64,000 nt of DNA, taken from positions 32,001 to 96,000 of IMG/VR virus record IMGVR_UViG_3300035696_000013; one strand, 5' to 3'. Below, in pieces: positions 59,325 to 59,998 of the stretch (position 1 is its first letter; every line of letters begins with the position of its first letter). Below the pieces are notes generated by a model. That model was given only the letters and a program-made list of their open reading frames with translations, was not told where the DNA came from and ran no database searches. This DNA is from a virus. The position numbers and the translations under genes are program-made.

Positions 59325-59998
59325 GTTCCGGTTGGCCAGAGATGCCAAGCACCTCTGAGAGACGCTGGCGTCTCGCGCTAACCGAATCAATTTCGCTAGT
59401 GCTGTGACATTACAGCTTGTTTGCAGTGCACGTGGCAACCGGGCCGCACATCCGGACTAGCGATTTCTAGTTTGTGCGTCATGGGAGAACCGATGCCAAG
59501 AAATTATTGGTAAGTTTCCATGGACTCGGCGGTACGAGAGCAGTAAATAAAATTGAATCCCTGGTATCCAGGCAACAAGATCGGTGGCAGACTTACAGGT
59601 AATCAATCCTGGTGCCTCGCCTTAATGGAAAAGCATCCAGCCGTCGCTCGTTGTCTGAATATCAGGGATTTGATTCGCTGCTCTTGGAATTTGTAGGTTT
59701 CCTGCTTCCTAAAAGCAGGTGGCGGAGTGGTCGGCGTGAGCGTTTCCTACTTCGTAAAAGTAGGTGATGGACCGATGTATCGTAGCCCCGTTTTTCACTT
59801 CGTAAAAGTGAAGATAGTCCCAGCCCTAATAATGACTGGGTGGTTGCTAAACCCCGCACGTTTCCAGACGTAAACTGGATGGTGGAGGCGACCTGAGAAA
59901 TCGGGTCGCCCCAGTAGTTTTGGTGAAAGTTATGAATCGCAAACGCTACACAACCGGAGAACGCTTTAGTTGCTAACTCAGCAATTAAGTCGGTAGTC
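59325..59998 (+). ncRNA. Large structured ncRNA, GOLLD-like candidate
   Basis: ~670 nt without credible ORF between tRNAs; many hairpins; three covarying CTTC.TAAAAG hairpins. Confidence 0.6.

Follow-up and report, generated by a model that had tools for sequence, protein, structure and literature searches.

The locus described here raises the question of what, if anything, is encoded by a 703-nt stretch of phage DNA that is flanked by two transfer RNA (tRNA) genes and holds no credible open reading frame (ORF). The window analyzed, 64 kb in length, corresponds to bases 32001-96000 of the 132,623-base IMG/VR virus record IMGVR_UViG_3300035696_000013, and the ORF-free spacer is placed in the third of its tRNA islands, between tRNA-Met(CAT) and tRNA-Phe. 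The original prediction for this region had proposed a giant non-coding RNA (ncRNA) of about 670 nt, resembling the large phage RNAs GOLLD and ROOL or representing a new class. The analysis presented here leads us to a different explanation, in which 59301-60003 is, on balance, probably a modular spacer RNA without coding function, belonging to a polycistronic tRNA operon of the phage and carrying a four-unit array of wcaG-type hairpins, and is neither a GOLLD nor a ROOL RNA. The spacer and its boundaries are as follows.

59223-59300 (+): tRNA-fMet-type tRNA(CAT) with encoded CCA, the 5' boundary of the spacer (ARAGORN; Rfam tRNA, 52.2 bits)
59301-60003 (+): ORF-free structured spacer, 703 nt (ORF scan, fold z-score, GC content)
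60004-60079 (+): tRNA-Phe(GAA), the 3' boundary of the spacer (ARAGORN, Rfam)

The longest ORF lying wholly within 59301-60003 spans 65 aa, and none of the five ORFs inside the spacer reached the Pfam cut-off. Readings with TAG as glutamine or with translation table 4 (TGA as Trp) yielded no frame across the spacer and were ruled out as coding alternatives, so that the claim of the original prediction that no credible ORF separates tRNA-fMet from tRNA-Phe holds also under other codes. The GC content of the spacer is 0.48-0.55, versus approximately 0.40 in the adjoining coding DNA. Folding of the 703 nt resulted in a minimum free energy (MFE) of -265.9 kcal/mol (z = -7.49), a value that none of 20 shuffled sequences equaled. 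By section, the z-score was -6.9 for 59325-59390, -8.15 for 59535-59686 and -3.66 for the array at 59687-59912, against a background of 450 windows of 152 nt taken between position 1 and approximately 33.8 kb of the window (mean z -0.41, sd 1.35, minimum -6.15). The structure signal of the spacer is local and resides in separate hairpins.

The hairpin sequences CCTGCTTCCTAAAAGCAGG (from 59701), CCTACTTCGTAAAAGTAGG (from 59746) and TTCACTTCGTAAAAGTGAA (from 59794) were found with the sequences and at the positions reported in the original prediction, which had overlooked a fourth unit at 59859-59892. The wcaG RNA (RF01761) is the only Rfam family that approaches the spacer; it matches 59693-59778 over the full model (positions 1-98 of 98) with 36.1 bits and an E-value of 1.3e-4. 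A covariance model of the unit, designated R1, was built from 17 aligned units from the window and other viral loci. Run without filters, R1 identified only four units in 64 kb, the next best match reaching 13.4 bits (E-value 0.26), and no further unit over the rest of the 132.6-kb record. The array and its associated hairpins comprise the following features.

59695-59732 (+): wcaG-type unit 1, with GUUUCC, 7-bp stem, CCUAA loop and tail UGGCGGAG UGGUCGG; R1 45.2 bits, in the Rfam wcaG match
59740-59777 (+): wcaG-type unit 2, with stem CCUACUU/AAGUAGG, CGUAA loop and tail UGAUGGACCG; R1 44 bits, in the Rfam wcaG match
59788-59824 (+): wcaG-type unit 3, with degenerate flanks and 9-bp stem UUUUCACUU/AAGUGAAGA; R1 30 bits
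59819-59840: hairpin after unit 3
59859-59892 (+): wcaG-type unit 4, with short stem UCCAG/CUGGA and tail UGGUGGAGGCG; R1 25.8 bits
59887-59896/59901-59910 (+): GC-rich 10-bp hairpin GGCGACCTGA/TCGGGTCGCC, p>0.8, beginning within the unit-4 tail

The four units are spaced 45, 48 and 71 nt apart, and their G/U-rich tails read, in order, UGGCGGAG, UGAUGGAC, GAUAG and UGGUGGAGGCG. In the 64 kb, the loop word CTTCSTAAAAG has three exact copies, at 59705, 59750 and 59798, all within 104 nt; with up to one mismatch allowed, seven matches were obtained versus 3.14 expected, a number reached by 5 of 100 shuffles. The unit-4 tail UGGUGGAGGCG is common to units in other loci (L010, L004, L044, L046, L052, L088 and L049), and an equivalent GC-rich hairpin lies 3' of the unit in other phages. 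Compensatory stem changes, which the original prediction had read from the three hairpins, are real at the level of the family: in an alignment of 18 matches (17 distinct), all seven stem pairs present compensatory double changes, although this alignment was fitted to the structure and leans towards it, the window units having been in the R1 seed. In the same alignment 84.9% of stem cells are paired, versus 71.7% in shuffles (none of 500 as high) and 35-56% when the partner strand is slid. Three wcaG RNAs scoring above threshold (L007, 91 bits; L005, 57.7 bits; L009, 53.1 bits) contain units that score 45-46 bits with R1, and units 1-4 align with them through a UUUC 5' flank, a covarying stem, a U/A-rich loop and a GUGG 3' flank. 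Across phages, the loop and flanks of the unit remain constant over a range of unit GC content from 0.34 to 0.63 while the stem covaries, which argues for selection. The hairpins are therefore units of the catalogued orphan wcaG RNA motif RF01761, and do not mark a new class as had been proposed.

No Rfam 15 family reached its gathering score in the spacer. The GOLLD model (RF02032, membership threshold 150 bits) gave no match in the window at gathering scores, nor over 58300-60100 at E<=10. The model is sensitive, since it returned 314.7 bits on a GOLLD RNA in another viral locus, L044 9693-10099 (-). The ROOL model, which we take to be RF03087 and to be present in the Rfam library, likewise produced no match at gathering scores or at E<=10, a result for which there was no positive control, and no other large-RNA family of Rfam 15 reached E<=10 over 58300-60100. 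In L044, approximately 3 kb separate the GOLLD RNA from a wcaG-type unit at 6635-6672 (-) whose tail is UGGUGGAGGCG, so that the two kinds of RNA can share one phage. The likeness to GOLLD and ROOL noted in the original prediction thus stands as regards a non-coding, structured region in a tRNA island after tRNA-Met; it extends to context and size and to nothing else, neither model giving a match.

The distribution of the unit was determined with a 28-nt unit pattern run over IMG/VR and over a collection of 185,579 prokaryote species represented by one genome each, which returned at least 120 viral loci versus a single locus in the prokaryote collection. The unit is virus-specific. The sole prokaryote match (L119 589-626, - strand) is on a 25-kb contig of an archaeal metagenome-assembled genome (MAG), with a tRNA-Met 755 nt away, and may be a viral contig that was binned with the archaeal MAG. 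Among the matches listed, which cover 79 new viral loci, 46 of 83 pattern matches lie within 1 kb of a tRNA called by ARAGORN, all 46 on the strand of that tRNA, and 19 are without a tRNA in the locus. For 13 units collected earlier from diverse phages, eight are within 1 kb of an ARAGORN tRNA or transfer-messenger RNA (tmRNA) and two more lie within approximately 340 nt of an Rfam tRNA; L007, L011 and L044 present no tRNA or tmRNA within 1 kb. The unit is also found in the tRNA islands of the large phages L010 (313 kb), L052 and L088 and, in L005, as one unit directly before an ORF start. In the complete phage L010, the unit occurs in a spacer of 749 nt that is poor in ORFs (z = -4.58) and separates tRNA-Gln from a tmRNA, the unit lying approximately 550 nt upstream of the latter. 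ARAGORN further places the unit inside a standard tmRNA (L049 1345-1651, + strand) and a permuted tmRNA (L004 3293-3622, - strand); in the tmRNAs of L049/L062 and L004 it follows the tag frame, and in L049 and L004 it takes the place of the pseudoknots. By eye, the unit tail in the L049 and L004 tmRNAs complements 7 nt of their own 3' end.

Searched with R1, the 79 loci among the matches listed contain 109 matches, with two in 30 loci and one in 49, typically 44-49 nt apart, and at most two units per locus were also found in the earlier loci. Four like units in a row thus constitute the largest array among the loci compared. Taken together, the restriction of the unit to viruses, its shared orientation with tRNAs and its presence inside phage tmRNAs point to a job in tRNA or tmRNA biology. 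A literature search of titles and abstract beginnings returned no functional test of wcaG and no link of the motif to tRNA or tmRNA.

In the explanation favored here, the spacer would be transcribed with the flanking tRNAs and freed by their processing, through a cut after the CCA-AGUUU trailer of tRNA-fMet and RNase P cleavage at the 5' end of tRNA-Phe. The RNA so released would consist of an orphan 5' section, with two exceptionally stable hairpin domains (D1 and a 152-nt rod); of the tandem units, each combining GUUUCC with a covarying stem of 5-7 bp, a CNUAA loop and a tail rich in UGGN, usually followed by a GC-rich hairpin; and of a weakly structured tail. The UGGN tails, held between two helices, might base-pair with the NCCA that stands single-stranded at the 3' end of a tRNA or tmRNA, and the array might hold or shield phage or host tRNA ends during processing or infection. 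As a mechanism for the array, UGGN-NCCA pairing is put forward tentatively, as a possibility that we ourselves regard as doubtful. The commonest tail, UGGUGGAG, was found in 10 of the 18 units aligned. It complements CUCCACCA exactly, and CUCCACCA forms the 3' end of the tRNA-Ala(GGC), tRNA-Ala(UGC) and tRNA-Tyr of this phage as well as that of the Rfam tmRNA consensus. The unit-1 tail contains UGGUCGG, complementary to the end of tRNA-Pro(UGG); UGGAGGC complements that of tRNA-Leu(UAG), and a further complement lies between units 3 and 4.

59841-59847 (+): UGGUUGC, exact complement of the last 7 nt of tRNA-fMet (GCAACCA)

In the MFE fold, the UGGU of this site pairs instead with ACCA at 59312-59315. 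In all, the spacer contains five complements of phage tRNA 3' 7-mers versus a mean of 0.82, as many as are held by 1% of windows, and four of the five are located between 59728 and 59883, in linkers or tails of the array.

A more ambitious version, in which the 703 nt are one processed RNA of a new class and D1 and the rod carry the array as a tRNA-end-binding scaffold, appears improbable to us. Each UGGN tail would then capture the NCCA end of a particular tRNA (Pro, fMet, Ala/Tyr or Leu) or of tmRNA. If true, the phage would organize, protect or sequester tRNA ends during infection, and wcaG, for 16 years an orphan "riboswitch candidate", would be a module that binds tRNA ends instead of sensing a metabolite.

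The processing signals of the phage tRNAs bear on how the spacer might be delimited. CCA is encoded in 24 of the 27 tRNA genes that ARAGORN identified in the window, and an A(A/G)GTTT trailer follows most of them; the 3' end of tRNA-fMet reads ...CCGCAACCA and continues with AGGTTT. The word CCAARTTT occurs 20 times in the window versus 8.8 expected, a count reached by none of 100 shuffles, and is absent from the spacer. If the word marks 3' processing, nothing tRNA-like therefore ends within the 703 nt. GTTT is enriched in the spacer (9 versus a mean of 3.7, with 0.3% of windows reaching 9) and occurs at the 5' edge of each unit, where it echoes the A(A/G)GTTT trailer after the encoded CCA. 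CCAARTTT was also observed at 20382 (CCAAATTT), 23672, 57632 and 58440 (CCAAGTTT), where no tRNA is called, and these four sites may mark non-canonical tRNA-like RNAs.

Several observations weigh against the modular wcaG-type array and against the pairing proposed for it. The wcaG match, at 36.1 bits, stays below the gathering score of 42, and the R1 scores of units 3 and 4 are low (30 and 25.8 bits) even though both were in R1's own seed; chance pattern matches reach approximately 28 bits. Many of the 79 viral loci are related cyanophage contigs, and the 46 tRNA-near units among 83 matches are consequently not independent events. Of the five 7-mer complements, one falls within the rod helix; complements of 8 nt are not significantly enriched (one, with at least one in 20% of windows), no 9-mer was found, and the 7-mer excess may reflect only the UGG-rich conserved tails; pairing beyond NCCA would, moreover, need an open acceptor stem. 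Within the unit, a cis GUU/UGG pairing with wobble holds in 14, 17 and 17 of 17 units, with one-sided changes to Watson-Crick pairs, and the alternative cis pairing UUCC/GGAG also fits; neither flank pairing covaries. The 5' 390 nt and the 3' 108 nt are without a homologue, so that the structures there are purely thermodynamic predictions, and two stretches, 59395-59534 (D2-3; z = -0.73) and 59913-60003 (z = -1.44), fold no better than shuffles. Promoter-like sites (7 versus 7.5) and terminator-like sites (5 versus 4.6) are at chance level, which leaves the transcription unit to be deduced from the tRNA context only, and the public runs holding the stretch include no RNA run.

Outside the array, the spacer presents the following predicted features.

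59329-59384 (+): D1, a hairpin of 8 bp plus 9 bp, CGGUUGGC/GCUAACCG and GAGAUGCCA/UGGCGUCUC, p>0.8
59341-59348 (+): GAUGCCAA motif inside D1
59455-59460/59467-59472: GACTAG/CTAGTT pairing
59492-59499 (+): second GAUGCCAA motif of the spacer
59535-59686 (+): rod, 152 nt folding as an imperfect hairpin; helices of 10, 17, 8 and 7 bp, three of them with p>0.8, and approximately 50 nt in a branched tip
59914-60003 (+): 3' tail with small hairpins at 59914-59949 and 59965-59989; z = -1.44, not significantly structured

The ACTAG/CTAGT pairing in this list (59455-59472) and the GC-rich GGCGACCTGA/TCGGGTCGCC pairing after unit 4 (59887-59910) are both present as originally described. The D1 region (59325-59390) amounts to a 66-nt hairpin. 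The z-score of the rod lies beyond all 450 background windows, no inverted repeat in the two tRNA-array regions scanned is longer than the rod, and it is single-copy in the 132.6-kb record. Rod and D1 are among the most stable local structures of the window and may constitute a separate element. Three of the five copies of GATGCCAA in the 64-kb window, on the + strand, fall within 427 nt (59073-59080, 59341-59348 and 59492-59499). The GCCA-AG within GATGCCAA resembles the junction between end and trailer of the phage tRNAs.

Other explanations of the spacer have to be weighed against a modular string of elements. That the approximately 700 nt adopt one fold as a single giant ncRNA of a new class, an RNA-only assembly of the GOLLD/ROOL kind linked to tRNA islands, we regard as quite unlikely. 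The tRNA-island context is the one given for GOLLD and ROOL in the available text of bioRxiv 10.1101/2024.12.08.627333, the z-score over the whole length is strongly negative, no tRNA-type 3' end punctuation interrupts the spacer, and L010 offers a comparable ORF-poor structured spacer with a unit; the L010 spacer, however, shares only the 32-nt unit with that of the window. The MFE fold does close 59302-59315 onto 59841-59853 through 13 bp, but this long-range helix is not among the pairs with p>0.8, and no homologue was found that could show a conserved or covarying long-range pair. With the signal located in separate local hairpins, two stretches no better than shuffles and GTTT enriched at module borders, a modular string fits better. 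The spacer could also be functionless and consist of tRNA genes in decay, remnants of repeats or a selfish insertion, its hairpins being harmless or mere nuclease barriers or processing sites. The lack of relatives for its 5' and 3' parts in all searches, the odd tRNA-like elements in the same tRNA array and the degenerate appearance of units 3 and 4 are compatible with such an origin. The rod is, in addition, a long imperfect palindrome, the shape that repeats of the miniature inverted-repeat transposable element (MITE) type present. Rod and units are nevertheless single-copy in the 132.6-kb record and so do not form a dispersed repeat, the rod is more stable than every background window, and the unit keeps its loop and flanks while its stem covaries across phages. 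We hence consider a functionless spacer unlikely.

Two further readings take the unit from its known settings. A riboswitch-like, cis-regulatory wcaG element could control the radical-SAM gene at 60118-60888, given that wcaG is classed as a 5' untranslated region (UTR) riboswitch candidate in the available text of PMC2864571 and that the L005 unit directly precedes an ORF start. Here, however, a complete tRNA-Phe separates the array from the next ORF, no unit lies near the radical-SAM homologue in 10 other loci (L002, L020-L028), and the unit goes with tRNA and tmRNA genes and not with any protein gene, which makes control of this gene very unlikely. A diverged or broken tmRNA is suggested by the unit that follows the tag frame in the tmRNAs of L049 and L004 and by the one upstream of the L010 tmRNA. 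ARAGORN called no tmRNA in the window or the whole record, though, no tmRNA family matched at E<=10, and neither an acceptor/T-arm ending in CCA nor a tag frame was seen by eye in 59301-60003; a tmRNA remnant is thus extremely improbable. A modular spacer RNA with a wcaG-type array remains, in our assessment, the probable explanation.

Searches for relatives of the spacer recovered the unit and nothing else. Against 50,697 phage records, blastn in its "distant" setting matched only two records of one phage, over 27 nt, and blastn of the downstream 3.9 kb gave no match. In blastn and nhmmer comparisons with loci L002-L011 and L020-L028, nothing beyond the 27-38-nt unit was recovered, and nhmmer searches of the 5' 390 nt and the 3' 108 nt against the 79 loci returned none at E<=1. 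A DNA search of five whole viral records carrying the unit or a radical-SAM relative revealed no further spacer homologue; five records related via the phrog_26613 protein, searched with the unit model only, contained no convincing match, one reaching 21.8 bits. A 41-nt anchor in tRNA-Phe returned no loci. Two loop words in tandem were found in 18 loci, all of them unrelated tandem repeats. The pattern GTTTCC...TGGTGGAGGCG was found in 77 loci, of which approximately 12 are true units by eye and the remainder are Gly-rich coding sequence or reverse-strand tRNA ends. The contigs of two DNA runs are identical over 58300-60300, and hence supply no population variants for covariation.

The genes around the spacer were compared as well. 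Downstream of tRNA-Phe lies the gene already weighed as a target of cis-regulation.

60118-60888: radical-SAM gene, downstream of tRNA-Phe

Its product has 713 homologues, the best non-self homologue being 72% identical. In 10 loci with a radical-SAM homologue (the viral locus L002 and the nine metagenome loci L020-L028; 56-77% identity in the best segment), no unit, tRNA or spacer homologue was found nearby, and a neighboring 162-aa protein has no relative in IMG/VR. The tRNA-Met(CAT) at 59223-59300 shows an initiator-type C1xA72 mismatch in the cmscan alignment. Upstream of it, ARAGORN missed a cloverleaf at 59130-59208 (+) that has a CAU anticodon loop, a GTTCGATTC T-loop and an extra arm and matches the tRNA-Sec model weakly (21.6 bits, E-value 0.28); it is the third CAU tRNA-like gene of the island. 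At 58996-59041 (+), directly after two small ORFs at 58498-58991, an acceptor-like stem and a T-arm-like hairpin without an anticodon arm resemble a tRNA minihelix.

The 27 tRNA genes of the window are all on the + strand and form three islands. Protein matches in the window include a tape-measure-like protein, ribonucleotide reductase, RecA and helicases. CheckV estimates the 132,623-base record to be 41% complete, indicating that the phage is large. The public runs holding the stretch are two DNA runs, both labelled peat metagenome, which may be its source. Within the first tRNA island, beside 15 tRNAs, the phage carries a full-length bacterial class A RNase P RNA gene at 22516-22878 (+), with 266.9 bits over positions 1-367 of 367 of the Rfam model; in a literature search on jumbo phages the term "RNase P RNA" did not occur. 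Structured 152-nt windows (z between -5.0 and -6.15) were also observed just upstream of this island, at 20101-20400 and 21226-21377, and Rfam identifies a tRNA at 20187-20271 that is absent from the ARAGORN list.

Among known systems, the tRNA cluster of phage T4 includes the stable non-tRNA RNAs species 1 and 2 (rnaC and rnaD), of about 140 nt each, which are co-transcribed and processed with the tRNAs. For the pairing proposed here, the T-box discriminator, a UGGN bulge, and the GGU of loop L15 in RNase P RNA both pair with the NCCA end of tRNA. The tails of the array would work like these, in that a short UGGN between helices is complementary to NCCA; the comparison concerns the manner of working only, as the array shares no sequence or family relation with them, is without a specifier or Stem I, and its UGG may pair in cis. 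The array also resembles the pseudoknot region of phage tmRNAs (RF00023, RF04321), where in L049/L062 and L004 a unit with tail UGGUGGAGGCG follows the tag frame. It differs in that the window presents no tRNA-like domain, tag frame or tmRNA call, and cmscan aligned the unit to the PK2 columns of tmRNA with low posterior probability.

GOLLD and ROOL are "often near tRNA islands", and GOLLD env-38 follows a Met-tRNA, according to the available text of bioRxiv 10.1101/2024.12.08.627333. The spacer is, to the extent that this text describes GOLLD, like it in being a large ORF-free structured region in a phage tRNA island, directly downstream of tRNA-Met; it differs in having no model match. A conserved 3' domain is a feature of GOLLD, and assembly into homo-oligomeric nanocages one of GOLLD and ROOL. 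On the same basis it is like ROOL as a phage RNA of several hundred nucleotides near tRNA islands.

The closest relation is to wcaG, an orphan riboswitch candidate since 2010, which the available text of Weinberg et al. (2010; PMC2864571) describes as a probable cis-regulatory riboswitch candidate in 5' UTRs of marine phages and cyanophages, a description that the portion at hand of the paper on phage S-CREM1 (PMC9964418) repeats. The two share UUUC(C), the 7-bp stem, the C-N-U-A-A loop and the GUGGYG tail, and both are viral and of unassigned function. The distinct second hairpin of canonical wcaG is, however, missing in the window, the Rfam alignment needing deletions in the second loop, and four units of the first-hairpin type stand in tandem instead. 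As far as the published descriptions at hand go, wcaG belongs to marine cyanophages and to the 5' UTRs of exopolysaccharide and high-light genes, whereas the array of the window comes from a peat phage, lies between two tRNAs with tRNA-Phe as the next gene, and forms part of an ORF-free stretch of 703 nt that also contains orphan domains. The unit is thus encountered here outside cyanophages, in four copies, in the tRNA operon of a large peat phage and with tails complementary to tRNA 3' ends.

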